64,000 nucleotides of DNA from an uncultured Bacteroidales bacterium (GTDB taxonomy: Bacteria; Bacteroidota; Bacteroidia; Bacteroidales; VadinHA17): assembly GCA_963813405.1 (NCBI GenBank), contig CAWEYU010000007.1, positions 4,310 through 68,309 on the forward strand, written 5' to 3'. A program made the position numbers and the translations under genes. Shown piece by piece: positions 41,682 through 63,029 of the stretch. The notes under the pieces were generated by a model. That model was not told the DNA's origin. It searched no databases and saw nothing but the letters and a program-made list of their open reading frames with translations. Position 1 is the first letter of the stretch. The number at the start of each line of letters is the position of its first letter.

Positions 41682-41715
41682 GTTCCTTTCTTTTCATCAA
41701 GGAAAAGAAAGGAAC
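41682..41715. repeat. 13-bp perfect hairpin GTTCCTTTCTTTT/catcaagg/AAAAGAAAGGAAC
   Basis: Same stem as 41256-41289 except for one compensatory base-pair change (A:T to C:G). Confidence 0.85.
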
Positions 41716-41921: not shown

Positions 41922-41941
41922 ATCCCGAAAGCTTTCGGGAT
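41922..41941. repeat. 20-nt perfect palindrome ATCCCGAAAGCTTTCGGGAT just 3' of the flippase gene
   Basis: Read directly. Related to ATCCCGCTTGCGGGAT at 43322-43337. Confidence 0.85.
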
Positions 41942-41950
41942 AGGGGTAAA

Positions 41951-46615: not shown

Positions 46616-47572
46616 TCAGAAGATAAGATCTATTATAAAATTCCCCTCCTGGTGGGGATCAGGGGGGATGTTTGATCTTCTAATGGATCTATTCCCAAAA
46701 AATTCAAAAATTTTGACAAAGTATTTTGAATAAATATTCAGATAATTGGTCTTTATTCCATTTTCTTTGCATGCCCTGGCAATTTCCCTGTTCAGGGTGA
46801 AATTACTAAGAATTGATTTATTGCTTACTCCGCCTGTTCTCATAGAGACGAATGGCATCTCCAGGTATTTGTAACTAATTTGATGAATTAGAAAAAACCT
46901 TAACAACAGTTCATAATCCGCAGCAATTTCATAATCTGTTTTATAGTATCCCAGTTTCTCAAATAATTTTCTTTTAACATAAAATGTAGGATGTGCAGGC
47001 ATAAATCCAAATTTAAATTTATTGGGATTAAAATATTTCGAGGAGTAATACCTCACAATCTTTGAGGGCTTCATGGAATCAAAAAACTCTACATCTCCAT
47101 AAACAGCATCTATATGATTTTTCTGAAATGCACTTGCAACAGTTTTGATTACATCACTATCATAAAAAAAATCGTCGGAATTCAGTATTCCGACAATGTC
47201 GCCTGTTGATAATAGAATGCCTTTGTTAATAGCGTCAATTTCCTCAGCCTGAAATGCTTGTACAACTTTTGAAATCACATCATTATCATAAAAAAAATCA
47301 TCGGCATTCAGAATTCCGATGATATCCCCGGTAGCAAGTTTTATGCCTTTGTTAATTGCATCATAAATTCCTTTATCCGGTTCGGAAATGAACTTTGAAA
47401 TCCGGGAGCCGTAAGATTTTATTAGTTCAACTGTACCATCGGTTGAGGAGCCATCGACGATTATATACTCGATATTGGAATATGATTGAGATAAAACAGA
47501 TTTTACAGTATCAGAAATAGTTCCTAAACTATTAAATGAGACTGTTACAATAGATACTTTTAGGTTTCCCAT
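46616..47572 (-). CDS. Glycosyltransferase family 2 with an internal 42-aa tandem duplication
   Basis: VSIVTVSFN, IIVDGSSTDGT, then two copies of DAINKGI.L.TGDI.GILN.DDFFYD.DVI. The C-terminal 20 aa run through a GC-rich hairpin element. Confidence 0.85.
   Translation of the reverse strand: MGNLKVSIVTVSFNSLGTISDTVKSVLSQSYSNIEYIIVDGSSTDGTVELIKSYGSRISKFISEPDKGIYDAINKGIKLATGDIIGILNADDFFYDNDVISKVVQAFQAEEIDAINKGILLSTGDIVGILNSDDFFYDSDVIKTVASAFQKNHIDAVYGDVEFFDSMKPSKIVRYYSSKYFNPNKFKFGFMPAHPTFYVKRKLFEKLGYYKTDYEIAADYELLLRFFLIHQISYKYLEMPFVSMRTGGVSNKSILSNFTLNREIARACKENGIKTNYLNIYSKYFVKIFEFFGNRSIRRSNIPPDPHQEGNFIIDLIF
47111..47362 (-). repeat. In-frame tandem duplication (2 x 126 nt) inside the GT2 gene
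   Basis: aa 71-112 (DAINKGIKLATGDIIGILNADDFFYDNDVISKVVQAFQAEEI) versus aa 113-154 (DAINKGILLSTGDIVGILNSDDFFYDSDVIKTVASAFQKNHI). Confidence 0.9.
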
Positions 47573-47600
47573 TTAATATTTAATATTTAATATTTAAATT
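47573..47600. repeat. (TTAATAT)x3-4 tandem repeat abutting the GT2 start codon
   Basis: Three perfect 7-mers at 47573-47593, then degenerate ttaaatt. Confidence 0.8.
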
Positions 47601-47623
47601 TAATTCCTTGAACTTAAGGTAAT

Positions 47624-47703
47624 CCATTCTTCCATTCTTCCATTCTTCCATTCTTCCATTCTTCCATTCTTCCATTCTTCCATTCTTCCATTCTTCTATT
47701 CTT
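47624..47703. repeat. Octanucleotide microsatellite (CCATTCTT)x9 plus one imperfect unit
   Basis: Counted directly. Lies between the stop of 47707-49884 (3 nt away) and the GT2 start (51 nt away). Reads (AAGAATGG)n on the coding strand. Confidence 0.95.
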
Positions 47704-47706
47704 TCA

Positions 47707-49884
47707 TCACTCCACTCCCTCATTTTTCCTTAGACCTGATTTTAGTAGAGCCTTTTCTTCTTTTATGTGGATAGAATGAATGAAGAAGGGGAGAATTGAA
47801 AAAAATCCAAATATTGGTGGATCAAACGGGCTACCGCCACTAAAAAATGTAAAGAAGAAAGTTATGAGAAAGAAAATGAATAAGAGTGGGTATTCTTTAA
47901 TATACCTGATATAATAATAGAACACTTTAAATAGGAAAAATAAATAAATAACCAACCCTACTATGCCTGAATACAGCAGAATTGATAGAAATGGATTATG
48001 AGGATAATCTATTCTGGTTTTAGTTCCAAAAAAATAGTATCCATACCAGTTTAAGAAAGAGAATCCGCCACCAAATATTTTTTGAGGCCAACTATATTCT
48101 TTATTAAATATTTCAAATGAAAATTTCCACCGGGCTATCCTGTCTTCCCCAAAATCATCCAATGACTTTTTAACAAACAGATTACTTTTGTATGGGTGAT
48201 AAATAGTATCTTCTGAAACAATTTTTCGAATCCAGTTCCTGAGTGGATCAGTATCAGCAGAATTGTTAATTTGACTAAAAAGTTCACTGATTGATAGTTT
48301 AAGAAAACTTGCTTTGTATATATTCTTTACAACTAGTGATTCATAGTTCATTTTTAGCTTTGAATCGTTATATTTTATTCCCTTTATAAATATTTTTTTG
48401 TAATTGTTACTTTGTATCAAGGAATTGGATATGTTGCTGCCATTTGATACTATATTAAATTCTGGAAATGCAAAAATCACATAACCTTTAAGATTAGAGA
48501 AGTCTTCCACTCCACCTTTATTCATATATAAATATATTATAATATCTCCTTGAGAACAGCTTATTGGTAGTATAAGTTTCTGCCAGCATCCTTTATTCTT
48601 TAAATCATAAAACTTATCAGGATTGCCTGTTAATGAGCCCTCTGCACGGATAGCTACGGCATCACCATCGAAATTATCAGTAACATAACAATAAACTGAA
48701 GCTAAAAGAGAATCACCTTTTTTTACACTCTCTCGTTTAAGCGACAAGAAATAATATGAATGTGAAGGAGATGCAAAACCTAAACAACTTTTATCAAATA
48801 AGTAACCTTTAGATCCAGCCGGGACAATTTCTACGTTTTTGCCAGATAAACTTTTGACAATTTTGTAGTTTCCGGTACCACTCCAGACTTCTGGGTCTTT
48901 AGGATCAAATACTGGTTTCCAAATCTTGGAATACAAAATCTCTTCATTAAGGTCTTTATCAAGAAAATGAAAATAACGAAAAAATGTTTCGGTTATTAAA
49001 TTTTTAGTATAAGGAATATTATTTACCCCTATACTTTCCAAAACACTATTTTTAAAATAAACTGAAGTGTTAAGAATCAGAAAAATAAGTAGAATTACAA
49101 GAATAGAAAAAGATAACAAGTAATATTTAGATATCTTACTTAACTGTTTGACTCTTAAATTATTACTAAACAAACTCCATAACTGAATTGCCAGAATCAT
49201 AATGAATAGTAAGAGGAATAAGAATACTCCTCTCTTTGATCCTGAAATCAAAAAACTGATAGAAAAAATTATTAATAAGATATTATATATTAATATTTTA
49301 AGTCTCGATATTTTCTGAGAAAAAGTATATAAAATACCTATTAATCCAAAGAATACCGGTATCAGAACGAAATTACTATCAACTACTGCCCTGTCCTTAT
49401 TAACATACAGGTCATTAAATGCTTGAGAATAAGATGATAAATAAAAATAAGAATAAATTCTTTGAACTGAAATTAAAAAAGCGAATAGTACAGCAAGATT
49501 CAAAAAAGATTGATAAAAAAGTATGCAGTCTTTTGATTCATGAATAAAAAGCTTAAGAACTAATATTATTGATAACAGAATAATAATATTTACAATATCC
49601 TTGACAATCATTAAATAAATTTTATTGGAAAAAAAACAAGCTAATGTCAGGTATAAAAAAAGAACTAAAACAACGGGCAAGATATTTTTTAAATCTTTTA
49701 ATCCTGAGAAGATTCTATCTCTATACATTACTAAGATGTATATTGTTATAAGAATATATATTATCAGGAAAGGATATTTAAAAAATGGAACCGCAGTATG
49801 CGTCAGATATAAACTTAGCCATAAAGTGACTGAAAAAAGTTCACCATTCTTTCTATTATAAGAGTTTAAAATCATATTTCTCAT
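47707..49884 (-). CDS. Large Wzy/O-antigen-ligase-like membrane protein with a ~220-aa extracytoplasmic insert
   Basis: About 9 N-terminal TM helices. A central soluble region (aa ~300-520) looks beta-rich. The C-terminal motif YPHNPFLSILLYSGIVGLVIY is Wzy_C-like. Extremely AT-rich gene. Confidence 0.5.
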   Translation of the reverse strand: MRNMILNSYNRKNGELFSVTLWLSLYLTHTAVPFFKYPFLIIYILITIYILVMYRDRIFSGLKDLKNILPVVLVLFLYLTLACFFSNKIYLMIVKDIVNIIILLSIILVLKLFIHESKDCILFYQSFLNLAVLFAFLISVQRIYSYFYLSSYSQAFNDLYVNKDRAVVDSNFVLIPVFFGLIGILYTFSQKISRLKILIYNILLIIFSISFLISGSKRGVFLFLLLFIMILAIQLWSLFSNNLRVKQLSKISKYYLLSFSILVILLIFLILNTSVYFKNSVLESIGVNNIPYTKNLITETFFRYFHFLDKDLNEEILYSKIWKPVFDPKDPEVWSGTGNYKIVKSLSGKNVEIVPAGSKGYLFDKSCLGFASPSHSYYFLSLKRESVKKGDSLLASVYCYVTDNFDGDAVAIRAEGSLTGNPDKFYDLKNKGCWQKLILPISCSQGDIIIYLYMNKGGVEDFSNLKGYVIFAFPEFNIVSNGSNISNSLIQSNNYKKIFIKGIKYNDSKLKMNYESLVVKNIYKASFLKLSISELFSQINNSADTDPLRNWIRKIVSEDTIYHPYKSNLFVKKSLDDFGEDRIARWKFSFEIFNKEYSWPQKIFGGGFSFLNWYGYYFFGTKTRIDYPHNPFLSILLYSGIVGLVIYLFFLFKVFYYYIRYIKEYPLLFIFFLITFFFTFFSGGSPFDPPIFGFFSILPFFIHSIHIKEEKALLKSGLRKNEGVE

Positions 49885-49887
49885 CTA

Positions 49888-50481
49888 TTAATTTTTTATA
49901 ATAGCCTTAATAGTTAGAAATAAAATTTGAAAATAGTTTTTTATACTCTGATTATTAATATATAACATATTTAACCTGATCTTTTCCGGCATTATTACCT
50001 CCACATATGTTCGTTCGGGATTTTCTGATCTCGCGAGTATTCCATTTTCATTACGGAATTCAATTGAAGCGTAATCGGTAATGCCAGGTCTCACGCTTAA
50101 TATAACTCTCTGTTCTTCATTATACAAATCAACATATTTTCTAATCTCAGGCCTTGGTCCCACGAGACTCATATTGCCTATTAATACATTGATTAATTGG
50201 GGCAATTCATCAATCTTGAATTTTCTAAGGTAGTAACCAACTTTAGTAACTCTATGATCTCTTAATCCTACTGTTAATGATCCAACTATATCAGAGTACG
50301 GAGCCATTGTTCGGAATTTCAGTAATTTGAATCCCTGATTATTTTTACCGACTCTGGTTTGAATATAAAATACTCCACCATTGCTATCATAAATTATTAG
50401 GATAGAGACTATTAAAAAAATAGGGAACAGAAATACCAATCCAAGTAATGAAAATAAAACATCAAAAAATCTAATTAGCAT
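49888..50481 (-). CDS. Small monotopic phosphoglycosyl transferase (bacterial sugar transferase, PglC/WbaP C-terminal type)
   Basis: LKFRTM, DELPQLINVLIGNMSLVGPRP, PGITD motifs. Confidence 0.9.
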   Translation of the reverse strand: MLIRFFDVLFSLLGLVFLFPIFLIVSILIIYDSNGGVFYIQTRVGKNNQGFKLLKFRTMAPYSDIVGSLTVGLRDHRVTKVGYYLRKFKIDELPQLINVLIGNMSLVGPRPEIRKYVDLYNEEQRVILSVRPGITDYASIEFRNENGILARSENPERTYVEVIMPEKIRLNMLYINNQSIKNYFQILFLTIKAIIKN

Positions 50482-50489: not shown

Positions 50490-51701
50490 CTAAATTACCT
50501 CAAGCACCGACTGAATAACTGCCTCAATAACTGACTTTATCTGATCTCTATTTAAATCATAGAAAACAGGTAAAGAAATTTCTCGGGAATAACTATCAAA
50601 AGCTACCGGATAATCTTTCATTTTATAACCTAGTTTTTTATAAAGAGTCAGCATCGGTAAGGGCTGAAAATGCACATTAACAGAAACATCTCTATCAAAT
50701 ATTTTCTGAATTATTTCATCTCTTTGATTCTCTGTAATTCCGATAACTCGTAACAGATATGCATGATAAGAGGATACTTTATCTTTTGTTTCATAAACAG
50801 GAGTTTGTGCCCAGGAAAAACATTTAAATGCTTGTGTATAAGTTTCAAATATTTCTCTTCGTTTGACTAAGGTGTCGCTATCGTAGCGCCTCAGTTCTAT
50901 CAGTCCAATTGCAGATAAAATATCAGTCATATTTGCTTTATAGCCTGCTTCAGGTACATCATAACGCCAATTCCCTTTCTGTAATTTCATTAGAGCATCC
51001 TTATTTTGCCCATGTAATGAATACATACATAAGTATTTATATATTTTATTATTATTAAATGGCATGGGTAAATTCATGCATATTGCACCGCCTTCTGCAG
51101 TAGTTAGATTTTTTACTGCATGAAATGAAAATACTGTAACATCTGAAGTACTTCCTACCTTTCTACCCTTATAAATTGCTCCGAATGAATGAGCTGCATC
51201 AAGTAATATTAGGATTCTGCTTAACTTCTTTTGTATTTCATTATCAGCTCTAAAGAGCCTTTTGATTTTTGCACTTTTTACCAGATCAATTATTTCATCA
51301 ATATCAACGGGAAATCCTCCCAAATCGACTGGTAAAATTACTTTGGTTTTTTCAGTAATGGCATTTCCAATTGCTTTTAAAGAAATATTGAAATCAGTGG
51401 AGTTTACGTCAACAAAAATGGGAGTTGCTCCGCAATGAATTACAACATTTGCAGTTGCACAATATGTATAAACAGGTACAATAACTTCATCACCGTCCTT
51501 GACTCCAAACCATCGAAGAACAAGTTCCAACCCTGATGTTGCAGAATTTACTGCTAGAGTTTCCTTACAACCGCAATAGGCAGTTATTTCTTTCTCAAAA
51601 CGTTTTGTACGTGGTCCTGTAGTAATCCAACCTGATTTTAAGGTTTCGACTACTTCATCAATTATTTTTTGATCTATACGGGGAGGAGAGAATGGTATCA
51701 T
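50490..51701 (-). CDS. DegT/DnrJ/EryC1/StrS family aminotransferase (PglE-like)
   Basis: ATG 51701 (MIPFSPPRI). LDAAHSFGA, SFHAVKNLT (PLP Lys). Confidence 0.9.
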   Translation of the reverse strand: MIPFSPPRIDQKIIDEVVETLKSGWITTGPRTKRFEKEITAYCGCKETLAVNSATSGLELVLRWFGVKDGDEVIVPVYTYCATANVVIHCGATPIFVDVNSTDFNISLKAIGNAITEKTKVILPVDLGGFPVDIDEIIDLVKSAKIKRLFRADNEIQKKLSRILILLDAAHSFGAIYKGRKVGSTSDVTVFSFHAVKNLTTAEGGAICMNLPMPFNNNKIYKYLCMYSLHGQNKDALMKLQKGNWRYDVPEAGYKANMTDILSAIGLIELRRYDSDTLVKRREIFETYTQAFKCFSWAQTPVYETKDKVSSYHAYLLRVIGITENQRDEIIQKIFDRDVSVNVHFQPLPMLTLYKKLGYKMKDYPVAFDSYSREISLPVFYDLNRDQIKSVIEAVIQSVLEVI

Positions 51702-51792
51702 ATTCAAAAGTTCTTTAGTTTAAAGTTTTAATTGGATAATTTAATTCATCATTGATCAGCCTCTCAGGTTATTGACCTGAGTAATAAAATAG

Positions 51793-52461
51793 CTATTTAT
51801 AAATAACTGAAATCATATGTGTTCTAAAAAATGGAAAGAGAAAGTTAACTATTCCATAAAAACGGCCCACTCTTCTGGCTATTGGAGGAGCCAGAGTAAC
51901 ATTAACAAAATCAACCTTATAGTTTTTAAACAGAATCCTGATCTCTTTTCTTGAGATCTTTTTTACATCCTTATTAGCCGGATTGTTGTATTTAAAATCA
52001 TAAAACAGGATGATTCCATTCTTTTTTGTCATAGAGATCATTTTGGCAGCAAGGTCCTTCCTGAAATCGGAATCCAGGATTGAGGTAAAAACCAATGACT
52101 GAAACACAATATCAAAATCGTTCTCGAATTCCAAATCTAAAGCATTTCCAATATTTATATTTTTTGAATTCCCTGTTTTTTCTTTTAGTAGAACACCTCG
52201 TTCGGGTAACAATTCGTTACCAAAAATATTTTCTAATTTAAAACCCAAACGATGGAAAAAAAGCAGATTATCACCAATTCCTGCTCCAACTTCCAGAATT
52301 TTTAGATTTGTTAAATCGGAGCCAAATATATTGAATATTAATCGTTTATACTGAAGCTCTCTTTCGAATAAAGTGTATGCGGTTGCATAGAAATATTGTT
52401 TTTCGTACAAGGCTTTTCGCCGTTCATAACGAGCTTTTATCTCCTCAATTTCACTTATCAT
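51793..52461 (-). CDS. Class I SAM-dependent methyltransferase
   Basis: ILEVGAGIGDN motif I. Overlaps the upstream GT2 stop by 4 nt. Confidence 0.8.
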   Translation of the reverse strand: MISEIEEIKARYERRKALYEKQYFYATAYTLFERELQYKRLIFNIFGSDLTNLKILEVGAGIGDNLLFFHRLGFKLENIFGNELLPERGVLLKEKTGNSKNINIGNALDLEFENDFDIVFQSLVFTSILDSDFRKDLAAKMISMTKKNGIILFYDFKYNNPANKDVKKISRKEIRILFKNYKVDFVNVTLAPPIARRVGRFYGIVNFLFPFFRTHMISVIYK

Positions 52462-53474
52462 CTTGATAAAGAAGTATGTTTAGAATTAGGTTTTTTATTA
52501 AATATTAAGAAATCAATGATACTATTAAGGTAACCTGTTCCATAACTGAAATGCAGAATGAAAAATGTATACATGATTTTGGAGATTAAAGAAAATCTTC
52601 TGGTCTTTTTCACTGAAATAAATAATCCAGTAAAAAAATAGAATAAAATGATACTCAAATAAAATAGAAAGAAATATTTGATTATTATGCTTGCGATCAG
52701 TCCCAATATTAAAAATAAGATAAAGAATAAGGGTACTACCTGACGAAAGGTTGTTATAGTTTTATGTTTCCTATTCACAAATACCTTCCAGTATCCATAT
52801 TGATAGTATTGTTTAAATAGATCCTTAAATTTGGTACGGACAAAGTATTTAATAGTTGTCTTAGATGTTATAAATATTTCATAACCATGTTTCCTTACTC
52901 TGTAATTCAGCTCATCATCCTGATTTCTCACTAAATTCTCATCAAAATACCCGATTTGATCAAAAATTTTCCGTCTGTAGAAAGGAATGCCTACGGTGTC
53001 GACGAAAACATCTGATTGAGTTCTGAACGAAGGACCGACTCCAAAAGTGGTTGATGTTGCATAAGCGATCATTTCGCTTTTAATAGAATCAAAAACAAGG
53101 TCCCCAACACTTCCGACACAGCCAATCTGGCTGTTATTTTCCAGAATATTAAGACATGTGGAAATATAATTTTTTGAAAGTATGTGTCTTGAGCCAACAA
53201 TGAGAATGTATTCTCCTCTTGAAGCCTTAATGCCTAGATTAAAAGAAACCGGTGTAATCATCCGTTCATTTGAGATAATTTTAATCTCAGATTCAGGGTG
53301 ATTCTTTTGAACCTCTTCGATTTGCTGGAGTGAATTGTCTGTGCTTAATCCATCAATAATTATAACCTCAAAATTTTCTTTTCCGTAATCATTTTCCAGA
53401 ATTGCTTCTATACACATTTTAATATAGTTTTCCTCATTACGGCAAGGAACTATCACTGATACTAATGACTTCAT
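52458..53474 (-). CDS. Glycosyltransferase family 2 with C-terminal TM segments
   Basis: VSVIVPCRNEE, IIIDGLSTDNS, NQDDELNYR. ATG 53474. Confidence 0.8.
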   Translation of the reverse strand: MKSLVSVIVPCRNEENYIKMCIEAILENDYGKENFEVIIIDGLSTDNSLQQIEEVQKNHPESEIKIISNERMITPVSFNLGIKASRGEYILIVGSRHILSKNYISTCLNILENNSQIGCVGSVGDLVFDSIKSEMIAYATSTTFGVGPSFRTQSDVFVDTVGIPFYRRKIFDQIGYFDENLVRNQDDELNYRVRKHGYEIFITSKTTIKYFVRTKFKDLFKQYYQYGYWKVFVNRKHKTITTFRQVVPLFFILFLILGLIASIIIKYFFLFYLSIILFYFFTGLFISVKKTRRFSLISKIMYTFFILHFSYGTGYLNSIIDFLIFNKKPNSKHTSLSR

Positions 53475-53489
53475 TTGCAACAGTGGATT

Positions 53490-54389
53490 CTATTCAATTA
53501 CACTGGCAGGATTCCCAAAAACTTTTTTTCCTTTTTTTACCTTTCTGACAACTACGGAGCCGATCCCAATAAAAGCAGAATCTTCGATAATTATTCCGTT
53601 TATAATATTTACACCCGAGCTGATATAACAGTCTTTCCCGATTATTGAACTGCCGCCGATGTTTGTTTTTCCGATTATTATTGTATTCTCTCCTACTTCA
53701 ATATTATGAGCAACATAACAAAAATCATCAATTTTGACTCCATTACCGATTACAGTATTTCCCAAGCTTCCTCTGTCAATGCTGACATGGGCGCCTATCT
53801 CAACATTATTGCCGATTATTACGCCGCCGATTTGTGGAAACCTCTCCAATATTCCATTCTCATTCTTTTCGAAACTAAAACCCTCTTTCCCAACAACACA
53901 ATGAGGTTTTATTTTAACATTGTCACCGATATCAACATTGTCTTCGATTTTACAAAACGACTCAATCATTGTATTTTTGCCAATTGTTGATTTTCCTACA
54001 ATGCTATATGGACCAATATGGCAACCCTCTCCAATCTTTGCTGCGCTGTCGATTATTGCAGTAGAATGAATATATGGCAACGATTCCGAATCTTTAATAT
54101 AAAAATGTGTAATAAGTCTGCTGAATATAAGTTTGGGATTTTCGACCAGAACAATACACTTACTTGGATAATGCTTTTCAGGAATAAATCCTTTTGGTGC
54201 AATTATTAACGACGCATTTGTTTTTTCCAAAATATTGGAATTATTCTTAAATTTTTGTTTTATCCATGATATGCTGTTTGCATCCGCATCCTGAAGCGAT
54301 TTGAAACTCATAAATACAATATCGGTTTTCTCTCCGATTATTTCAAAGTCACCGATGAAATCCAAAATTTCGTTAATAGATATTTTCAT
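53490..54389 (-). CDS. LpxD-like left-handed beta-helix N-acyltransferase
   Basis: An LpxD-type N-terminal domain followed by many hexapeptide repeats (IGEGCHIGPYSIVG..., IGDNVKI..., IGNNVEIGAHVSI...). Confidence 0.75.
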   Translation of the reverse strand: MKISINEILDFIGDFEIIGEKTDIVFMSFKSLQDADANSISWIKQKFKNNSNILEKTNASLIIAPKGFIPEKHYPSKCIVLVENPKLIFSRLITHFYIKDSESLPYIHSTAIIDSAAKIGEGCHIGPYSIVGKSTIGKNTMIESFCKIEDNVDIGDNVKIKPHCVVGKEGFSFEKNENGILERFPQIGGVIIGNNVEIGAHVSIDRGSLGNTVIGNGVKIDDFCYVAHNIEVGENTIIIGKTNIGGSSIIGKDCYISSGVNIINGIIIEDSAFIGIGSVVVRKVKKGKKVFGNPASVIE

Positions 54390-54481
54390 ATTCGAATGTA
54401 TAAAAGGTTAACTTGGATCAGTATTCAAATAAACATCATTAATAAATAATTGAAAAAAGCTGAATATGTTGATTTACGCTT

Positions 54482-55219
54482 TTATCTGGCTGAGTATCCC
54501 CCATCAATGATCAGATTTGTACCTGTTATCCATCTTGCGGCGTTTGACAATAAAAACATTATTGCATTCGCTATATCCTCAGGTTCGCCAAAACCAAGGG
54601 GATGTTTCGCTTCAGCCATTTCAATGTCTGTTTGAAGTTTTATAAAATCCAGCATCGGCGTTTTTACAAAACCGGGTGAAATAGAATTAACCCTGATATT
54701 GATCGGAGCCAGCTCTAGAGCCATAGTTTTCGTTACAGCAGCCAATGCTGCTTTCGTACCTGTATATAGTGCATTTGTCTGTGTGCTTACCAGACTCATT
54801 ATTGATGAAAGAAAAATTATCGATCCCCCTGCAGTTATCTTGTTTTTTTTCAGTAACTGGCTATTAAGAAGAACAGGTGCCTCGTAGTTATTTTTGTCAA
54901 GTTCGATCAGCTGATCTTCCCTAATGAATTTGAATGGCACTAATTTGATTATACCTGCGCTATTAACAACACCATTAAATTTCCTGGGAAATGAGACTAT
55001 TTTCTCTCTAACATCCGGGTTTGTGATATCCCCATGCAGGATATTAAGAATATCCGATCTGATCTCATTAGATAAAATATTCAGTTTTTCGCAGTCCTTA
55101 TCGACTGCCAATACCGCGTTTGAGGAGTTCATAAGGAGTCTAACAACTTCCTTTCCAATACCCGAAGCAGCTCCTGTTACCAGGTAATTACCATTGGTCA
55201 CTTCAAAATCATCTATCAT
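54482..55219 (-). CDS. SDR-family oxidoreductase (FabG-like ketoreductase)
   Basis: VTGAASGIGKEV, YTGTKAAL, RWITGTNLIIDGGYSA. ATG 55219. Confidence 0.85.
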   Translation of the reverse strand: MIDDFEVTNGNYLVTGAASGIGKEVVRLLMNSSNAVLAVDKDCEKLNILSNEIRSDILNILHGDITNPDVREKIVSFPRKFNGVVNSAGIIKLVPFKFIREDQLIELDKNNYEAPVLLNSQLLKKNKITAGGSIIFLSSIMSLVSTQTNALYTGTKAALAAVTKTMALELAPINIRVNSISPGFVKTPMLDFIKLQTDIEMAEAKHPLGFGEPEDIANAIMFLLSNAARWITGTNLIIDGGYSAR

Positions 55220-55625
55220 TTTCCGGAATTTCAACTACCTCAATAAGTCCATAACTTTTTTTATATGCAAAAATAATGCAATGGTCGTCAATGCCATTTG
55301 AATTTTCAGGCTTATTAAGAATTATGAATTTTTCTTTCTTCAAACTGGCAATTGCAGCATTAATGTCATTAACGGAATAACAAAAATGATACGGACCAGG
55401 ACCGCATTTCTTAAGAATATTATCAACAGGAGAATTTATTCCGGCGCTGGAAATCAATTCAATCTGAGGGTGTCCGCTTTTGTTTATAAAACAAACCCTT
55501 ACCTTCTGGAAAGGAACAGTAATCTCCTCTCCGCACGTATATCCAAGCTTAATAAAAAATAATTTAGTATCATCCAGATTATCAGTTGCAAAACCAATAT
55601 GATGAAATTTAAACAGTTCTAACAT
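55209..55625 (-). CDS. VOC/glyoxalase-family protein (methylmalonyl-CoA-epimerase-like)
   Basis: FHHIGFATDNLDD N-terminus and ~138 aa size. Assignment made by pattern only. Confidence 0.6.
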   Translation of the reverse strand: MLELFKFHHIGFATDNLDDTKLFFIKLGYTCGEEITVPFQKVRVCFINKSGHPQIELISSAGINSPVDNILKKCGPGPYHFCYSVNDINAAIASLKKEKFIILNKPENSNGIDDHCIIFAYKKSYGLIEVVEIPENDR

Positions 55626-55633
55626 AAATCGTA

Positions 55634-56680
55634 TTATTTTTCTATCAATGGCAATAATCTTGTAGAAGAAAGATCCAACATAGCCGATCCCCAGGAAAGT
55701 CCTGCCCCGAATCCTGATATAATTACACTTTTCCTGATCCTTTGAGTTGTTTCTGTAATAATGGTAAGTGGAATAGATGCTGAACTTGTATTACCAAATC
55801 TGTCAATAGAATAAGGCACCTTTTTTATATCGAATTTAAGCCTTTTAATAAAGTAATCGGTCATAAATTTATTAGCCTGATGGAATACGATCAAATCCAA
55901 CTCGCTCAAATCTTTCCCGGCAAAGGAGAGAAGATTTTTAATATCCTTAGGAACACTCATAATGGCAAAATTAAAAACTTCCATCCCATCCATATATAAC
56001 TGGTTAGGAGACCTGAAATTTCCATCTTCAACTTCAACCTCCGCAAGGTTTTCCGGGGTAGTTCTGGTCCGTGCTCCACCTGCATCTATTTTCAGCACAT
56101 TTACACCTGATCCGTCTGAATTAAGTGAAAAAAATGAGTCGCCAAAATCTCCTTTTTCAACCAGAGTCGCAGTACCTGCATCACCATAGAGTGGGGCATT
56201 AGCTTTATCCTTCAACGAGATAAGTTTCGAAAATGTTTCCCCATCCAGAAGGAGCACCCTCTTTATCCCTTCCTGAGATGCATAAGCATATGCAGTTGAT
56301 AAAGCATAAATATATCCTGAACATGATAGATTTATATCGAATGAAGCTGTAGTCTTTGGTAATCTCAACCGGTGCTGAAGACTTGGTGCCGTTGCGGGGA
56401 TTTTATAATCACCATCCTGGGTCATAAATATTAAAATATCGATAGAATCCCGGGGAATATTTAATGAGTCCAATAGTTCATTTGCTGCAGCATAACACAA
56501 ATCTGAAGCGCATACACCTGCAGGAGTTATTCTTTTTTCCCTGATCCCGATTGTATTAATCAGATTTTCCAATTCATCTTTTGGGATCAGATAAGATAGC
56601 TCCGAATTATAATGAATATCTTTAGGAACACATGCTGCTAATGAAGTGATCCCAATGTTATTAAATTTTATTAAAGCCAT
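55634..56680 (-). CDS. 3-oxoacyl-ACP synthase III (FabH-like KAS III)
   Basis: Cys-His-Asn triad contexts LSCSGYIYAL, FHQANKFM, GNTSSASIP. Confidence 0.85.
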   Translation of the reverse strand: MALIKFNNIGITSLAACVPKDIHYNSELSYLIPKDELENLINTIGIREKRITPAGVCASDLCYAAANELLDSLNIPRDSIDILIFMTQDGDYKIPATAPSLQHRLRLPKTTASFDINLSCSGYIYALSTAYAYASQEGIKRVLLLDGETFSKLISLKDKANAPLYGDAGTATLVEKGDFGDSFFSLNSDGSGVNVLKIDAGGARTRTTPENLAEVEVEDGNFRSPNQLYMDGMEVFNFAIMSVPKDIKNLLSFAGKDLSELDLIVFHQANKFMTDYFIKRLKFDIKKVPYSIDRFGNTSSASIPLTIITETTQRIRKSVIISGFGAGLSWGSAMLDLSSTRLLPLIEK

Positions 56681-56722
56681 AAGTTTACTATTTTTTCAAA
56701 GATACAGTGCTTTCCTGGGTTT

Positions 56723-57321
56723 CTAAAACAAATGATTCCCCATGACCAGGGAATACTGTATGTCACCGGGCATTATTTCATAAATATGCAAGATGCTTTG
56801 CCTGAGTTCTTCCCTGTTTCCATCAGGCTGTGTGACTTTTGATTTTATTCCCTTTAATAATGTATCTCCTGTAAACATTATTTTTTCAAGTGCACACATA
56901 TGCTGCACCTGGAATGACCAGGAGAATGATAAAACGAGATAAGATTGTCATTCCATCTGATGAAATGATCCTCAATATCTTCTATACAAATATCAGCTTG
57001 CGGTGCGACAATCGGCCCTAAGTCGGCAAAGTAGGACAAATTTTTAATTGGATCTTGAATTTTTTCAGAACACAATCTTGATGAGACAATCTTCGCATTC
57101 AAGCTTTTAACTAGAGGACCCACACCAGAAATGTGATCAAAGTGGCTGTGCGTCAGTATAATATAATCAAGATCTATTTTTGCTTTGCCAATGAATTCCA
57201 GAATATTGCCAATATTTCTGCTTCCCGGGTCTACAACAAAAGATTTACGGCTTAATTGATCCTGAACTATATAGCAATTAGAATTATTTATATCATTAAT
57301 TAACCGATTAACTTTTATCAT
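56723..57321 (-). pseudogene. MBL-fold metallo-hydrolase, interrupted by a frameshift near 56895-56912
   Basis: N-terminal ORF has THSHFDHISG and ends ...SPGHSRCSICVHLKK*. The overlapping ORF in another frame continues HMCALEKIMFTGDTLLKG, the expected '...C.L.E..LFTGDTL' continuation. Confidence 0.75.
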
Positions 57322-58927
57322 TATTTATCAGCAAGCTTATCCCTATAGAATTTTTCCAGTTCCTTTCTGAGAATCTTTTTTGTCGGACCTTTTGGTATTT
57401 CCTTCAATCCGGGGAGCTCATTTATGAAAAAGACTTTTGAAGGGATTTTAAAAACTGCAATTTTATCCTCACAGAATTTCCTGATCTCTTCACTAGTAAT
57501 TGACATATTCTCTTTTCCCTCGATAAATATAGCTACATCCTGACCCCATATAGGATGATCAATACCAATTGCAGCACAATCTTTAACCGCAGGATGCATA
57601 TAAACTACATTTTCGATCTCACGTGGATAGAGGTTCTCTCCTCCTTTTATTATTAGATCATCTTTCCGTCCGCTGATATAATAAAATCCATCGCTATCTC
57701 TATGGCCAAAATCGCCACTATGAAACCATCCTCCCCTGAAAGCAATTTTGTCTCTTTCTGGCAGATTACAATATTCAAGAAATACATTAAATCCTCTGAT
57801 GCAAATCTCACCTACTGAATCATCAGGTAATATATTTCCATCATCATCCATAATTGCCATTTCATTTACAGGTAATTCTTTACCAATTGAACCAATCTTG
57901 CGTCAGAAGTTATTAAAGGATTAAAACATGAAAAAGATGTTGTTTCAGTAAGTCCGTAACCTTCAAAAACAGGTACATTGTATATCTGTTCAAATTGAAG
58001 TTGAACACTTTGTGGTAATAAGGCGCCGCCACAGATGATTCCCTGCATATGATGATCCGTTCTCTTCCGTTTGAAAGAAGGAGGACGATAAATCGTAGGT
58101 ATAACGCTGCTCCAGTTAGCTTTGTATTTGTTAACAAGATCCCAGAAAGCAATCAGGCTTACATTTCCTTTGATCATAATAGTGCTTCCCCCACCCCACA
58201 ATGGGGCAAGAAACGTAACAATTTGTCCATTATTATGAAAAAGAGGTAGTATGCATAAAGTTCTCGTGTCGCTATTGAAAGCAAACCATTCAGCAATTGC
58301 CTGGGCATCTGCAAGCAGATTTGCATGTGTAAGAGTCACTCCTTTGGGATTTCCGCTTGTCCCTGATGTATATATTATAACCGACTTATCATCAAGATCA
58401 ATATTATCATCCTTTATGATCTCACAAGGTTTGTCATCTATTGTTTGGTACAGATTAAAATATTTTGGATCAGCTTTGCCTTCACTAAAAATAATTATTT
58501 CCCTTATACCGGGAATTTCGGGAAGTATCTCTTCGACTTTTATGATATATCTCTCGTCAGTAAAAAGGATTTTGCTTTTACTGTCATTAACAATATAGGA
58601 GATCTCCCTAGGTACAAGGTTGTAATTTATCGGGCATACAATTATTCCTGAAGAGAGTGCTGCAAAATACAATACCAGGAAATCAGCTGAATTTGGAAGA
58701 ATAAGGTTTATAGAATCTCCCTTTCTTAGTCCTGTTTCCTTAAGATAATTCCTGACTTTAATTACTCTGTTAACAAACTGTCTATAAGTATAAACTTCAT
58801 GTTCGGATTTCTGCAGACTTAAAACGAACTCTTTATCCGGGTTTGCTAAATATTTATCAAATAATAATGAATAGACAGAAGAATATTTAAATATGAGATC
58901 TCTGTCAATTTTCTGATAATCCTTCAT
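57321..58927 (-). pseudogene. AMP-dependent (adenylate-forming) acyl ligase, interrupted by a frameshift near 57895-57905
   Basis: N-terminal ORF has YTSGTSGNPKGV and GYGLTETT. After ...NPLITSD the shifted frame reads KIGSIGKELPVNEMAIMDDDGN, continuing into GWFHSGDFG...GRKDDLIIKGGENLYPREIE. The stop shares one nucleotide with the MBL ATG. Confidence 0.8.
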
Positions 58928-58932
58928 CACTG

Positions 58933-59160
58933 TTAAAATTTCTTTAATACTGAATCAATCTTCTTAATACTCGTCATTGTAATGATATCTTCAAACTCAA
59001 ATTCCAGTCCCAGCTCTTCTTCGAGTTCAGCTATTAGTTGTACCTGTTTTAAGGAGTCCCATTCTGCAATATTGTTCATCTCCATATCATCAGTTACAGA
59101 ACTGACCCCTATTACCTTTTTAAATATTTTTTCAAAATCTTCTTTATACTTGTTTGTCAT
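58933..59160 (-). CDS. Acyl carrier protein
   Basis: 75 aa and acidic. Phosphopantetheine-site context EWDSLKQVQLI. Confidence 0.8.
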   Translation of the reverse strand: MTNKYKEDFEKIFKKVIGVSSVTDDMEMNNIAEWDSLKQVQLIAELEEELGLEFEFEDIITMTSIKKIDSVLKKF

Positions 59161-59171
59161 AACCTGAAAAT

Positions 59172-60092
59172 TTATAAATTATTAATTATGTTTTTTGCAG
59201 CATATTCTGCCATCTCTTTTCTACACTCAACTGTGGCAGTACCAATGTGAGGTGTTAAAAGAACATTATCAAACGTAAGAATTTCGTTCCTGATAGGTAT
59301 CGGTTCAGGTGCGAATACATCCAATGCTGCTCCGGCAATTCCTTTTTGTTTTAATGTTTCCAGCAAATCGGAAGACTTTACAACACCCCCTCTTGCCATA
59401 TTTACGAGTATGGCTTCTTTTCGCATCAATCGAAACTTTCTCATATCAAAAAAATCCTTTGTATCCTCAGTTAATGGCAAATGCAGGGAAATAACATCCG
59501 ATTTTGTTAATAATTCGTCAATTCCGGTATATACAGAAATATTATCTGATATGTTTTCAACCGGATCGTAGAAGAGAATATCCATCCCAAAGCCGCTAAG
59601 CCTTTTTGCGACTGCTTTTCCAATATTTCCGTATCCGACAATACCCCAAACAAGTGAGCTGAAATTTCTTCCGACAAAAATCTCTGGATCCCAGGCTTTC
59701 CAAAGTCCTTCTCTTACAAACATGTCAGCCTCTTTAACTTTTCTAAGCAATGCAAAAGCTAATGAAACGGTTAGATCTGCTGTTGGTCCTGTAACTACAC
59801 CAGGGGTATTGAACACTTTTATTCCGAATTCATCAGCAGATACAACATCAATATTATCCAAACCGACGGCCATATTTGAAATAATTTTCAGGCGTTTTTT
59901 TGATCTTAATATCAGCGATCTGTCGACCTTTTCTGAAACACAGGTAAGGATGGCATCGAACTTATCAATATTATCAGTCAGATATTTTGGATCAAGTGGT
60001 TCATTAATATCGAATGAAGTTACCTCTAAACACGCCTTTTCAAGCAGTATTTTAGCTGAAGGGTTGATTTTACGTGTAATTAGGATCCTCAT
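59172..60092 (-). CDS. D-isomer-specific 2-hydroxyacid dehydrogenase (NAD-binding)
   Basis: GIVGYGNIGKAVAKRL Rossmann motif, NMARGGVV, LTPHIGTAT. Confidence 0.85.
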   Translation of the reverse strand: MRILITRKINPSAKILLEKACLEVTSFDINEPLDPKYLTDNIDKFDAILTCVSEKVDRSLILRSKKRLKIISNMAVGLDNIDVVSADEFGIKVFNTPGVVTGPTADLTVSLAFALLRKVKEADMFVREGLWKAWDPEIFVGRNFSSLVWGIVGYGNIGKAVAKRLSGFGMDILFYDPVENISDNISVYTGIDELLTKSDVISLHLPLTEDTKDFFDMRKFRLMRKEAILVNMARGGVVKSSDLLETLKQKGIAGAALDVFAPEPIPIRNEILTFDNVLLTPHIGTATVECRKEMAEYAAKNIINNL

Positions 60093-61330
60093 TTTTTCAA
60101 GAATTTTCCAACTTTCATAAGACCCTCTTCTATAAGGTGGTGTTCATAAACCAAAGGGCCGTATGATAATCTTACCGATTTTGCGACTGTCTTGCCAAAT
60201 CCCCAGCCAGGTACAAACAGGACACCAGTACCCTTTAATACATCTTCTACGAATGTTGCACTGTTCTTATTAACGTTTATGCAGGTATATAATCCCCCAT
60301 CAGGCTCAAGGCAAGGCAATCCCATGTATTTTTTAATTGCATTAATTGTTACTTCTGCAGTTTCCCGATACAGAGCTCTTATTTCATTAACATAGCTGAC
60401 AAGGGAATTATCATCTACAACGCTGTTAATGTATTCTGTAAGGGCCATTTGATGAAGTCTGTCGGGTGAAAGAATTGTAGAGTTCTGAAGAGATTCGAAA
60501 GCATCAATCACATATTTCGGTGCCTCAATCCATCCAAGACGTCTTCCAAGACCTCTGCACCATTTTGAGTTAGAACGAATTGAGATAAAATTCTCATCCT
60601 GGCCAAGCGAGAAATATTCAGGATATTCTCCAAAATAAATCTCTTTATACGCAAAATCCATTACAATAACTCCTCCGTACTCCTTTACGGCATCATGAGC
60701 TGCTTTAATAAAGTCGTCTGAGAGTATCTTGGATGTTGGATTATCCGGAGAAATCAGCATGACAACTTTTGGTCTGTTTTTCAGAAGATATGCTTTGAAA
60801 TTTACAATTGTATCTTTTTTGTTTGCGATGTATTCAAAATTCTTTTCATCTATTACAGGAAATCTCAGTACATGAGATCCTGTAGATACTTTAATTTGTA
60901 ACGGATAATTGCAATAAGAAGGATCAAGCATGCAAATCTGATCACCCGCGTCAAGTAAGACGCTGAGTAGTAAACTTGTAAGATGTGATGAACTCTGACC
61001 AATAACAATATTATCAGATGTGAGGCTCGTTGTGCCATAAATAGTATTTTCAAACTTTACCAAAGCATCTTTTGTACTTTTTTCTCCATTCGTAGGAGAA
61101 TATCCCCCGCTATGATGAAATTTTATTTCATCATCAACAATCCCCTTGTAAGCTTCAGCCAGTTTTTTTGGAGACCTATGGTTTACCCAACCACCTCCAA
61201 AAGAGATAAGTTTATCAGGGTCTATTCCGTATTTTCTAAGATTTGCCGGGTCAGCAAAATTCATTATTTCTCTTACCGGAGATACTTTCCTGAAAAGATC
61301 AGTAGCTATTTGAGAAATTTTAACATCCAT
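60089..61330 (-). CDS. Class I/II PLP-dependent aminotransferase
   Basis: ISPDNPT, MDFAY, RSNSKWCRGLGRRLGW (Lys in SNSK). 4-nt overlap with the downstream dehydrogenase. Confidence 0.8.
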   Translation of the reverse strand: MDVKISQIATDLFRKVSPVREIMNFADPANLRKYGIDPDKLISFGGGWVNHRSPKKLAEAYKGIVDDEIKFHHSGGYSPTNGEKSTKDALVKFENTIYGTTSLTSDNIVIGQSSSHLTSLLLSVLLDAGDQICMLDPSYCNYPLQIKVSTGSHVLRFPVIDEKNFEYIANKKDTIVNFKAYLLKNRPKVVMLISPDNPTSKILSDDFIKAAHDAVKEYGGVIVMDFAYKEIYFGEYPEYFSLGQDENFISIRSNSKWCRGLGRRLGWIEAPKYVIDAFESLQNSTILSPDRLHQMALTEYINSVVDDNSLVSYVNEIRALYRETAEVTINAIKKYMGLPCLEPDGGLYTCINVNKNSATFVEDVLKGTGVLFVPGWGFGKTVAKSVRLSYGPLVYEHHLIEEGLMKVGKFLKK

Positions 61331-61347
61331 AATAATAAAATTTAGTT

Positions 61348-62109
61348 TTAGTGGGCACTATAACCACCATCAACAAAAAAATTAATTCCTGTAATCCATC
61401 GGCTTGCATCAGAAAGTAAAAATATGCACGCATTGGCTATGTCGGTGGGCTTTCCCAGTCCAAGCGGATGCATTTTCAATATTGAATTTCTAGATTCTTC
61501 TGAAATAGTAAGGAAAAGTTGCTTAGACATCTCAGTTTCAATAACTCCGGGCAATATACAATTTATCCTGATCTTTTTTGCAGCCAGTTCCAATGCCATG
61601 GCTTTTCCGGCAGATAGCAGAGCACCTTTACTGCTGCAATATGCTACATTGCCTATATCACCCAAAGCACCCATTACTGAAGAAATTAAGATATAACTTG
61701 CTCCCCCGTCAGAGAGATATTTAATCTTCGACAGTATTCTCACTATTTCAAAACTGGCAATTGCATTAACAGCTATTACTTTTTCATAATTTTCGGCTTT
61801 CAGAATTTTTAATGGCCTGCTCATTTCTATTCCTGCCGAATGGATAAAACCATTTATCGGACCAGTTTTTTCAACAGATTCTTTAATAATAGGCTCTAAT
61901 TTTTCATATTCTGTGATATCCTGTGCGTAGAAAATATGACCTGTCCCTTCCAATTGATTTAACGTGTCCTGAAGTTTATCCGGCTCCAATCCGATTAAAA
62001 TTAGACGGGCTCCCATTTTAGAACAACTTATCGCACATTGGCGGCCAATACCAGAAGAAGCACCAGTAATCAGAACTACTTTATCTTTTAAATTGAATAA
62101 TTCATCCAT
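61348..62109 (-). CDS. SDR-family oxidoreductase (FabG-like)
   Basis: ITGASSGIGRQC, YCSSKGAL, RWITGINFFVDGGYSA. Confidence 0.85.
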   Translation of the reverse strand: MDELFNLKDKVVLITGASSGIGRQCAISCSKMGARLILIGLEPDKLQDTLNQLEGTGHIFYAQDITEYEKLEPIIKESVEKTGPINGFIHSAGIEMSRPLKILKAENYEKVIAVNAIASFEIVRILSKIKYLSDGGASYILISSVMGALGDIGNVAYCSSKGALLSAGKAMALELAAKKIRINCILPGVIETEMSKQLFLTISEESRNSILKMHPLGLGKPTDIANACIFLLSDASRWITGINFFVDGGYSAH

Positions 62110-62111
62110 TT

Positions 62112-62333
62112 TTATTTATGTTTTTGGAGATAATCATACAATTCATTTACTGTCAGTATCTTTTCAAAATCTACCCGTGGTATTGTCAGTCCGTACTCTT
62201 CGTGAATCATAGCGCTAAGTCCTAAAAGTGTTAGAGAATCCCAACCTTCATAATCCCGGAAAACATCATCCATTTTAATCTCATCTCTGTTTTTCTCAAA
62301 AACTTCTTCTATTACGCTGTAAAACCTTTCCAT
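62112..62333 (-). CDS. Acyl carrier protein (second copy)
   Basis: About 73 aa. GWDSLTLLGLSAMI Ser-site context. ATG 62333 preferred over TTG 62342. Confidence 0.75.
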   Translation of the reverse strand: MERFYSVIEEVFEKNRDEIKMDDVFRDYEGWDSLTLLGLSAMIHEEYGLTIPRVDFEKILTVNELYDYLQKHK

Positions 62334-62390
62334 AAAAACCAATATTTAAAACATTAAAAATTCAAGTATAAGAATTATTTGTTTAATATC

Positions 62391-63029
62391 TTAGTTAATA
62401 ATCCAACGAATAACCTCGAATGATTCAGCATAATCAGCTCCAATTTGTACACCCCGTGCCTTAGCCAGCGAAAAAATAAACTCTTCCGACATATAATCTC
62501 TTATTCCTTGCGATTTGTATTCTTTAAGTGCATCGGCTTTCTTCTGAATATGCTTTTTCGTCAATGACACAAATGACGTTGTATTAAATTTTAAATTGTT
62601 CCATATTAATTCATACCCAAGAATTGTCTTAGTCTTAAATGCTCTGAGTCCCTCGTTTGCAACGGTTGAATGATCCTGATGTATATCGTTAAAACAAGGC
62701 ATCAGAATCAAATCAGGATTAATATCTTTCCTGATCTGTACTAGGTCGTCCAATATTTCCTGCCTGACAAAATTAAGTTTTCGCACCTGATAATCAAAAA
62801 CAATAAGATTTTCATTTCGCACACCCAGTTTTTCAGTTGCTCTTCGTACTTCGGTTTTTAAGACATCTTTTGGCCAACCTTCAGGTACAGATTCTTCCGC
62901 AGTCGAGAAAGCAGCATAGTATACAATAGCTCCGGTTTCGACAAAATAATTAATTGTACCACCAGCACCCAGCTCGCCGTCATCAGTATGAGGAGCTAAA
63001 ACCAGTATTCTTTTTTGTTTAGTAACCAT
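62391..63029 (-). CDS. PIG-L/LmbE-family de-N-acetylase
   Basis: ILVLAPHTDDGELGAGGT and NDIHQDH metal-binding motifs. Confidence 0.85.
   Translation of the reverse strand: MVTKQKRILVLAPHTDDGELGAGGTINYFVETGAIVYYAAFSTAEESVPEGWPKDVLKTEVRRATEKLGVRNENLIVFDYQVRKLNFVRQEILDDLVQIRKDINPDLILMPCFNDIHQDHSTVANEGLRAFKTKTILGYELIWNNLKFNTTSFVSLTKKHIQKKADALKEYKSQGIRDYMSEEFIFSLAKARGVQIGADYAESFEVIRWIIN

Follow-up and report, generated by a model that had tools for sequence, protein, structure and literature searches.

A modular cassette in a Bacteroidales polysaccharide locus predicted to exchange an amino-sugar N-acetyl group for a short hydroxylated acyl chain

What are genes for acyl carriers, amino-acid conversion and chain extension doing in the middle of a surface-polysaccharide locus? 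The question is raised by a 64,000-nt stretch of contig CAWEYU010000007.1 (assembly GCA_963813405.1) from an uncultured Bacteroidales bacterium, referred to here as the window; all coordinates below are positions in it. Between 53490 and 63029, on the minus strand, twelve genes lead from a PIG-L de-N-acetylase to an LpxD-like N-acyltransferase. A first-pass annotation, made from the letters alone, had described them as a contiguous cassette, dependent on acyl carrier protein (ACP), that builds an unusual N-acyl group and attaches it to an amino sugar. Genes were called from the listing of open reading frames (ORFs) and their translations, and families were assigned with Pfam and NCBIfam profiles. 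All twelve genes are present in the order given by the annotation and all of its family assignments hold; it did not detect that the ligase gene is split by one frameshift and the gene for the metallo-beta-lactamase (MBL)-fold hydrolase by two, a point to which we return below. The antigenicity and charge of surface glycans in bacteria are influenced by unusual N-acyl groups, for most of which the genes are unassigned. To specialists, varied N-acyl groups in loci of this kind come as no surprise; the modules found here are widespread and uncharacterized.

On balance we favor the interpretation that the products of this locus exchange the N-acetyl group on an amino sugar for a short, hydroxylated acyl chain, and that a modular route supplies this chain from an amino acid. 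The chemistry of this route is inferred throughout from the gene content, motifs and gene couplings that we observed. An aminotransferase would turn a free alpha-amino acid into the 2-oxo acid, which a dehydrogenase resembling glyoxylate and hydroxypyruvate reductases would convert to a small D-2-hydroxy acid. A ligase resembling those for oxalate and malonate would adenylate this acid and charge the second carrier protein, ACP2. The 3-oxoacyl-ACP synthase III (KAS III) would take 2-hydroxyacyl-ACP2 as primer and condense it with malonyl-ACP1, adding one C2 unit, and a FabG-like short-chain dehydrogenase/reductase (SDR) would reduce the 3-oxo group to give a (3R)-3-hydroxyacyl thioester with an additional hydroxyl at C4. 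The chain is predicted to end in this form because the cassette contains neither a dehydratase nor an enoyl reductase, and a 3-hydroxyacyl thioester, the donor class of LpxD enzymes, would account for the use of an LpxD-type transferase. The intermediate may be tailored or proofread by a vicinal oxygen chelate (VOC)-fold protein, possibly a thioester C2 epimerase, by the MBL-fold hydrolase, possibly an editing thioesterase, and by a second SDR. Finally, PIG-L would deacetylate a GlcNAc-type sugar, the short LpxD-like enzyme would acylate the resulting amine, and the neighboring family 2 glycosyltransferase (GT2) and methyltransferase would use or modify the acylated sugar.

A proposed amino-acid-to-hydroxyacyl module

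The predicted route begins with a class I/II aminotransferase of the AspAT fold (60089-61330; 413 aa; PF00155, Aminotran_1_2, 117 bits). It has the SxSK lysine motif and a C-terminal Arg, both invariant in the family alignment and both kept from alpha-amino-acid transaminases, in which the Arg is the carboxylate-binding residue. The nearest solved aminotransferase scores just 77 bits, too distant for the amino acid or the hydroxy acid to be named from active-site residues. The start of the D-2-hydroxyacid dehydrogenase gene (59172-60092; 2-Hacid_dh_C, 188.8 bits) overlaps the aminotransferase stop by 4 nt, and the best solved relatives of its product are the glyoxylate reductases 6bii, 5aov and 2dbq, at 215-219 bits. 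The gene for ACP2 follows (58933-59160; PP-binding, 27.7 bits, with a DSL motif). This carrier, predicted to be loaded by the ligase, is 30-43% identical to the ligase-adjoining ACPs of 13 GTDB loci. The adenylate-forming ligase itself (57321-58930; AMP-binding and AMP-binding_C; 536 aa when its frame is restored) finds its best solved relatives in oxalate-CoA ligase (257 bits) and then malonyl-CoA synthetase, and is nearer to these oxalate- and malonate-activating enzymes than to amino-acid adenylation domains.

Do these four proteins act in one pathway? The first-pass annotation had supposed so, and the supposition is supported by a neighborhood survey in which we took one genome per GTDB species, retained loci with enough flanking DNA, and counted partners within 6 kb. 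Where the aminotransferase was at least 48.5% identical to that of the window, ACP2 and ligase homologues were found in 13 of 15 loci and the dehydrogenase in 12, whereas around more distant aminotransferases a dehydrogenase, ACP or ligase was found nearby in none of 40. The aminotransferase is a member of a tight orthologue group. The carriers of the module include Bacteroidales, Kapaibacterium, Ancylomarina, bacteria of the candidate phyla radiation, Methanosarcinales and Nanoarchaeota. In a metagenome-assembled genome (MAG) of the Methanosarcinales (locus L013) the dehydrogenase, PP-binding and AMP-binding domains are fused in a single ORF of 935 aa, present in two assemblies, and in Kapaibacterium (L005) the four genes are directly followed by one for a PglD-type N-acyltransferase. 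The co-occurrence and the fusion together support the conclusion that the aminotransferase, dehydrogenase, ACP2 and ligase work together. The fusion protein, the aminotransferase motifs and the solved relatives of the dehydrogenase and ligase favor a path from an amino acid through its 2-oxo acid and a small D-2-hydroxy acid to 2-hydroxyacyl-ACP2. A literature search found no account of an aminotransferase/2-hydroxyacid dehydrogenase/ACP/ligase route to glycan acyl groups.

Archaeal forms of this module have some features of their own. In the Methanosarcinales MAGs L013 and L022 (14-16 kb), the candidate transferase near the module is a catalytic domain of 205-209 aa of the 2-oxoacid_dh (E2/CAT-like) type. 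In the version of L006 and L013, a tandem double ACP, a MaoC dehydratase and an ACPS phosphopantetheinyl transferase adjoin this domain.

Extension genes, bookends and mosaic build

The extension step rests on KAS III (55634-56680), in which both ACP_syn_III (PF08545) and ACP_syn_III_C (PF08541) are matched and the catalytic triad is intact in the translation: Cys in LSCSG, His in HQAN and Asn in GNTSSAS. Among solved structures, the 3-oxoacyl-ACP synthase III entries 4efi and 3gwa match it best. Since it scores 229.4 against the FabH subfamily cut-off of 249, we take it to be a paralogue and not the housekeeping FabH. Two further genes resemble parts of the minimal loci L002 and L003, which consist of PIG-L, KAS, ACP, SDR and LpxD-like genes. 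ACP1 (62112-62342; PP-binding, 40 bits; DSL serine motif) shares 31% identity with the KAS III-adjoining ACP of L003, and the FabG-like ketoreductase SDR1 (61348-62109; adh_short_C2, 167.6 bits) is the best match to the single SDR of both loci (48% in L002, 40% in L003). The complete KAS III triad and these counterparts of the minimal-locus ACP and SDR make a single cycle of extension and reduction on ACP1 likely. A dehydratase, an enoyl reductase and a long-chain KAS I/II are all absent from the cassette.

The roles of the remaining interior genes are less clear. The VOC-fold protein (55209-55625; Glyoxalase_4, 70.4 bits) resembles methylmalonyl-CoA epimerase and glyoxalase I and reaches 62.9 bits with TIGR03081, below the cut-off of that model. 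Homologues of it stand beside the ligase module in L007, L015-L017, L024, L027 and L036. The gene for SDR2, a second FabG-like reductase (54482-55234; adh_short_C2, 147.7 bits), always adjoins the VOC gene in related blocks, and the pair is kept in L090, L091, L092 and L094. The MBL-fold hydrolase (56688-57321; Lactamase_B, with the motif HSHFDH; 211 aa when restored) is glyoxalase II-like. Glyoxalase I, methylmalonyl-CoA epimerase and glyoxalase II act on alpha-acidic or 2-hydroxyacyl thioesters, and from these likenesses we propose, with low confidence, epimerization for the VOC protein and editing for the MBL hydrolase.

Is the cassette inherited as a whole? Ten interior genes, from ACP1 to SDR2, are colinear in the JGI contigs L090 and L091 at 70-90% identity and in L092 at 38-64%; in L094 the block is rearranged and has no MBL gene. 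This colinearity in independent contigs, at 38-90% identity, and the tight or overlapping junctions between the genes place the arrangement far beyond chance. Co-conservation, which the first-pass annotation had proposed to check, extends to the ten interior genes and not to all twelve as one co-inherited unit. Compared across loci, the cassette is a mosaic of bookends, amino-acid module and an extension set of KAS III, ACP and SDR. In L090, L092 and L094 the LpxD-like gene after the block is replaced by genes for a PglD-type transferase and a DegT protein. This substitution of one transferase for another supports the view, already put forward in the first-pass annotation, that the acyl block feeds an N-acyltransferase.

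The upstream bookend, a PIG-L/LmbE-family de-N-acetylase of 212 aa (62391-63029), matches PF02585 at 67.6 bits against a threshold of 28.2 and carries the metal motifs PHTDD and HQDH in its translation. The downstream bookend (53490-54389) is a short hexapeptide protein of 299 aa. It passes the LpxD subfamily model NF002060 (256.7 bits, cut-off 207) and does not reach the equivalog TIGR01853 (188.8 bits against 242.5); its putative N-terminal uridine-binding domain falls just under the cut-off for PF04613 (29.6 bits against 30.8). Residues 14-157 align with residues 18-156 of Acinetobacter baumannii LpxD at 55.9 bits. The catalytic His is conserved, VAHNIEVG of the window aligning with IAHNVVIG of Escherichia coli LpxD, and the G(x)EGF(x)F motif is kept too. 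The protein lacks the C-terminal ACP-docking helices, and the alignments stop at LpxD residues 293-318 of chains of 341-372 aa. It belongs to a very large family of proteins of about 300 aa that occur in polysaccharide loci.

The two bookends enclose different donor genes in different genomes. They flank KAS III, ACP and SDR in L002 and L003, a thiolase and a 3-hydroxyacyl-CoA dehydrogenase in L103, where the gene content makes a 3-hydroxybutyryl-CoA route evident, and a reshuffled form of the window block with two KAS III genes in a further JGI contig. Altogether, this bracketing of varied donor genes was found in five independent lineages, and it supports de-N-acetylation followed by N-acylation, as had been predicted for the window. 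The window PIG-L is 81%, 78% and 50% identical to those preceding the LpxD-like genes of L002, L003 and L103, and the transferase is less conserved across the same loci (61%, 44% and 38%), a difference consistent with a sugar that stays the same and an acyl donor that varies. The order LpxD-like gene, GT2, methyltransferase also recurs in L002 and L103. The first-pass annotation called the cassette ACP-dependent; the transfer step may not be strictly so, the transferase having no docking domain and the donor genes of L103 being of the CoA type. For these two reasons the thioester donor may be recognized through its phosphopantetheine arm rather than through the ACP. A literature search found no description of the PIG-L/short-LpxD pair.

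Tentatively, and with somewhat less assurance than for the route as a whole, we suggest that the aminotransferase, dehydrogenase, ACP and ligase form a pan-prokaryotic glycan-tailoring module that makes 2-hydroxyacyl decorations from amino acids, and that Bacteroidales have combined it, inside a PIG-L/short-LpxD socket, with a single round of extension by KAS III. If this is true, the combination would yield an N-acyl group of the 3,4-dihydroxyacyl type, which to our knowledge (no literature search was made for it) is present in no described glycan. The locus separates into testable parts, a deacetylase/transferase socket that takes different donor modules, and an amino-acid-to-hydroxyacyl-ACP module common to distant bacteria and archaea, small-genome lineages included. 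Biochemical assignment of one member could make acyl decorations readable from many polysaccharide loci and supply parts for glycoengineering.

Some observations around the bookends stand apart from this argument. A GT4 gene beside PIG-L could signify bacillithiol synthesis, and this was rejected since the BshB model TIGR04001 gives 64 bits against 182.5 and the BshA model is likewise far below its cut-off. In L105 (8001-15716), outside any obvious polysaccharide locus, genes for an ACP, an SDR, an amidohydrolase, an AMP-binding enzyme, LuxE and LuxC come after a short LpxD-like gene that is 39% identical. In L002 (3490-6148) two type IX secretion cargo genes (Por_Secre_tail and Fib_succ_major) are inserted just upstream of PIG-L, in the middle of the locus.

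Competing explanations and frameshifts

Several points weigh against the route as drawn here. The direction assigned to the aminotransferase and dehydrogenase depends on the likeness of the ligase to enzymes that activate acids other than amino acids, and on the fusion protein; the acid substrate cannot be identified from sequence, since the amino acid cannot. KAS III enzymes usually prime from acyl-CoA and not from acyl-ACP, and the absence of the docking helices from the transferase counts on the same side. Characterized PIG-L enzymes act on GlcNAc glycosides and LpxD on a UDP-sugar, which makes the stage at which the two enzymes meet ambiguous. The VOC protein, MBL hydrolase and SDR2 have no firm place in the predicted pathway. 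Three more distant LpxD-like contexts, that of L105 among them, are without PIG-L. Lastly, both L090 and the JGI contig that has two KAS III genes place a formyltransferase next to PIG-L, and the amine freed by PIG-L may sometimes be formylated instead.

What, then, is the acceptor? Most simply it is the amine freed by PIG-L, and the main rival is a 4-amino sugar made by the DegT protein. The acyl chain would then go to the 4-amine of a 4-amino-4,6-dideoxyhexose supplied by this PglE/PseC-like enzyme, and PIG-L would serve another purpose, such as exposing an amine, free or formylated, at some other point of the repeat unit. The PglD-type transferase and DegT genes that follow the ten-gene block in L090, L092 and L094 have the classic layout for 4-N-acylation, DegT and a PglC-like initiator lie just downstream of the cassette in the window itself, and the formyltransferase beside PIG-L would fit as well. 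Moreover, Flavobacterium psychrophilum acylates Qui2NAc4N at N-4 according to a predicted pathway (PMC6519341). We nevertheless consider this acceptor unlikely, because in five independent lineages PIG-L and the LpxD-like gene bracket donor genes of any kind. The native acceptor of LpxD is a 2-amino group, and the Pfam and NCBIfam searches found no PglF-type 4,6-dehydratase in the window. In addition, conservation is far higher for the DegT and PglC-like genes (76% and 67% identity with their L003 counterparts) than for the cassette, as expected of an independent initiating-sugar unit.

Two other alternatives concern the donor and the transferase. The cassette might make two donors and not one chain, with KAS III, ACP1 and SDR giving 3-hydroxybutanoyl-ACP1 and the amino-acid module giving 2-hydroxyacyl-ACP2, destined for different positions or with one esterified onto the other. 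Each set does occur alone with its own transferase (KAS/ACP/SDR in L002 and L003, the amino-acid module in L005), and the cassette has two ACPs and two SDRs. This possibility appears rather improbable to us, since the window, L090, L092 and L094 each have a single N-acyltransferase with the ten-gene block, the ten genes are kept colinear as one block at 38-90% identity, and two-ACP priming is known for the synthesis of single chains. We give hardly any credence to the idea that the LpxD-like protein is the housekeeping lipid A LpxD, or that the product of the cassette is a lipid or secondary metabolite with no connection to a glycan. The match to NF002060 and the LpxD label that sources attach to homologues point that way, and are outweighed by the failure to reach the equivalog cut-off, the missing C-terminal domain, membership of a large family of polysaccharide loci, and the position of the gene between SDR2 and GT2, within a locus of glycosyltransferases, flippase and polymerase rather than in the lpxD-fabZ-lpxA context. 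The first-pass annotation had named the housekeeping LpxD as a case to be excluded. A lipid product is further disfavored by the lack of a dehydratase, an enoyl reductase and a long-chain KAS I/II in the cassette.

A final alternative is decay of the cassette: the frameshifts would be genuine, and the strain would have stopped making the acyl group. The window has the ligase as two ORFs (57866-58930 and 57321-57860) that separate AMP-binding from AMP-binding_C, and the MBL hydrolase as three frame pieces, the first at 56878-57321, with shifts near 56892 and 56761. Relative to L001, a metagenome contig 99.7% identical to the window, single bases are missing at 57904 in the ligase and at 56892 and 56761 in the hydrolase. 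Three frameshifts within 1.2 kb could be taken as a sign of decay. However, both genes are intact (536 and 211 aa) in a short-read (Logan) assembly that covers this locus and encodes the identical KAS III protein, and the MBL gene is also intact, at 211 aa, in L090. L001 bears indels of its own in genes other than those broken in the window, and L107, which has the same gene order at about 90% amino-acid identity, has frame breaks in yet other genes; both assemblies are of the same accession series as the window, and from their scattered single-base indels we judge them to be error-prone long-read assemblies. Two of the missing bases (57904 and 56892) lie in short A runs, and 56761 does not. 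Restoring the three bases gives full-length matches to AMP-binding and Lactamase_B in Pfam, and the restored hydrolase is identical to the L001 product and covers positions 5-183 of the 196 of the Lactamase_B profile. Between the window and L107, dN/dS is 0.05-0.33 across the alignable cassette genes and 0.20 for the ligase, with the MBL hydrolase unscored and dS saturated for the methyltransferase. The intact short-read copies, the indels elsewhere in the sister assemblies and the dN/dS values led us to reject real pseudogenes, and decay of the cassette is very improbable. Because independent assemblies of the same population have both genes intact, the frameshifts are probably errors of long-read assembly.

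Related systems and the surrounding locus

How does the predicted hydroxyacyl exchange compare with described systems? The comparison with O-antigen N-acyl clusters that the first-pass annotation had suggested leads to the wfpC-wfpG genes of F. psychrophilum, predicted to build a 3,5-dihydroxyhexanoyl group on Qui2NAc4N (PMC6519341). That set resembles the cassette in placing a dedicated ACP, a ketosynthase, a ketoreductase and a beta-helix N-acyltransferase, all of which the window has, in a Bacteroidota polysaccharide locus, and in its product, a short polyhydroxy acyl group predicted on an amino sugar; it has several 3-ketoacyl-ACP synthases (PMC6519341). Its transferase is a PglD homologue directed to the 4-amine of Qui2NAc4N and that of the window is LpxD-like, and a term search of the paper found no mention of a deacetylase or an LpxD-type transferase (PMC6519341). 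Nor is an aminotransferase, a 2-hydroxyacid dehydrogenase, a ligase, a second ACP, an MBL or a VOC protein described for that set (PMC6519341). A literature search on Campylobacter Cj1299-Cj1308 and Vibrio cholerae rfbK-O gave nothing usable beyond this paper. The F. psychrophilum genes are the closest described case, itself known by prediction only.

Other systems share parts of the logic. In V. cholerae O1, RfbK-L-M-N-O use an ACP and an adenylate-forming ligase to activate a small hydroxy acid, tetronate, for the amine of perosamine. The cassette likewise has an ACP and an adenylate-forming ligase, here predicted to serve in placing a hydroxy acid on a sugar amine; the Vibrio pathway uses LuxC/LuxE-like and iron alcohol dehydrogenase steps, and Pfam finds neither domain in the cassette. 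The LuxC and LuxE genes that L105 combines with ACP and ligase beside a short LpxD-like gene recall the tetronate genes. LpxC and LpxD also de-N-acetylate and then place a (3R)-3-hydroxyacyl group on the freed 2-amine, and LpxD has in common with the window transferase the left-handed beta-helix, the catalytic His and a probable N-terminal domain. The differences are that the window deacetylase has the PIG-L fold, that its transferase lacks the C-terminal helices, that a short chain is expected, and that the setting is a polysaccharide locus. In Nod factor synthesis (NodB/NodA with NodF/NodE) and with the teicoplanin deacetylase, a member of the PIG-L/LmbE family, and its acyltransferase, deacetylation is again followed by reacylation with a chain from a dedicated ACP and ketosynthase. 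NodB and NodA have other folds and use long chains, and the acceptors in these two systems are oligosaccharides or a glycopeptide, so the analogy is one of logic only. The cassette is an uncharacterized variant of a known glycan decoration and not a new kind of system.

The genes on the minus strand run without interruption from about 31.3 kb to the end of the window, and the cassette region is part of a 33-kb surface-polysaccharide locus, for an O-antigen or a capsule. As the first-pass annotation had stated, the cassette is followed by a GT2 with a C-terminal membrane segment (52458-53480), a methyltransferase (51793-52461), a DegT/PseC-like sugar aminotransferase (50490-51707) and a small PglC-like phosphoglycosyltransferase, the Bac_transf initiator (49888-50481), all identified with Pfam and NCBIfam. 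A role for this GT2 in making an undecaprenyl-phosphate sugar (GtrB/ArnC-like) is unsupported, its solved relatives being generic GT2 enzymes. Further downstream are a 725-aa membrane protein, more glycosyltransferases, a WecA/MraY-type transferase, a Wzx-like flippase, FdtA and a Wzy_C protein, and it is this content that identifies the large polysaccharide locus.

Several minor features of the locus were also recorded. The 725-aa multi-pass membrane protein (47707-49884), which follows the PglC-like and DegT genes, has a faint Wzy_C match only and is about 38% identical to proteins of related loci (L090, 14489-16687; L002, 16689-20900, as two tandem copies). From its sequence it is a candidate polymerase, ligase or periplasmic glycosyltransferase. 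Between its gene and the next GT2 gene, at 47623-47707, lie 10.6 copies of the 8-bp tandem repeat TCCATTCT with 96% matches, adjoined by a 7-bp repeat at 47571-47604; the 8-bp repeat could be a slippage-prone switch for the downstream glycosyltransferase. In translation, some 40 residues of that GT2 (46616-47572) are directly duplicated within the protein (IDAINKGIKLATGDIIGILNADDFFYDNDVI..., then IDAINKGILLSTGDIVGILNSDDFFYDSDVI...), a repeat that Tandem Repeats Finder did not report at the DNA level. The duplication is possibly an assembly artefact, since L001 is strongly divergent there, near the end of that contig. Between a glycosyltransferase-like gene and the Wzx-like flippase, a stretch of 885 bp (41067-41951) contains no ORF longer than 59 aa and could be a decayed gene, a junction of two loci or a regulatory region. 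Outside the polysaccharide locus, the window encodes a complete resistance-nodulation-division (RND) efflux operon (23750-29191), with a membrane fusion protein, an AcrB-like pump and an outer-membrane factor; an RND pump of the window shows about 90% identity to proteins from Bacteroidales MAGs. Also outside the locus is a gene for a TPR-CHAT protein of 1045 aa (6061-9198).

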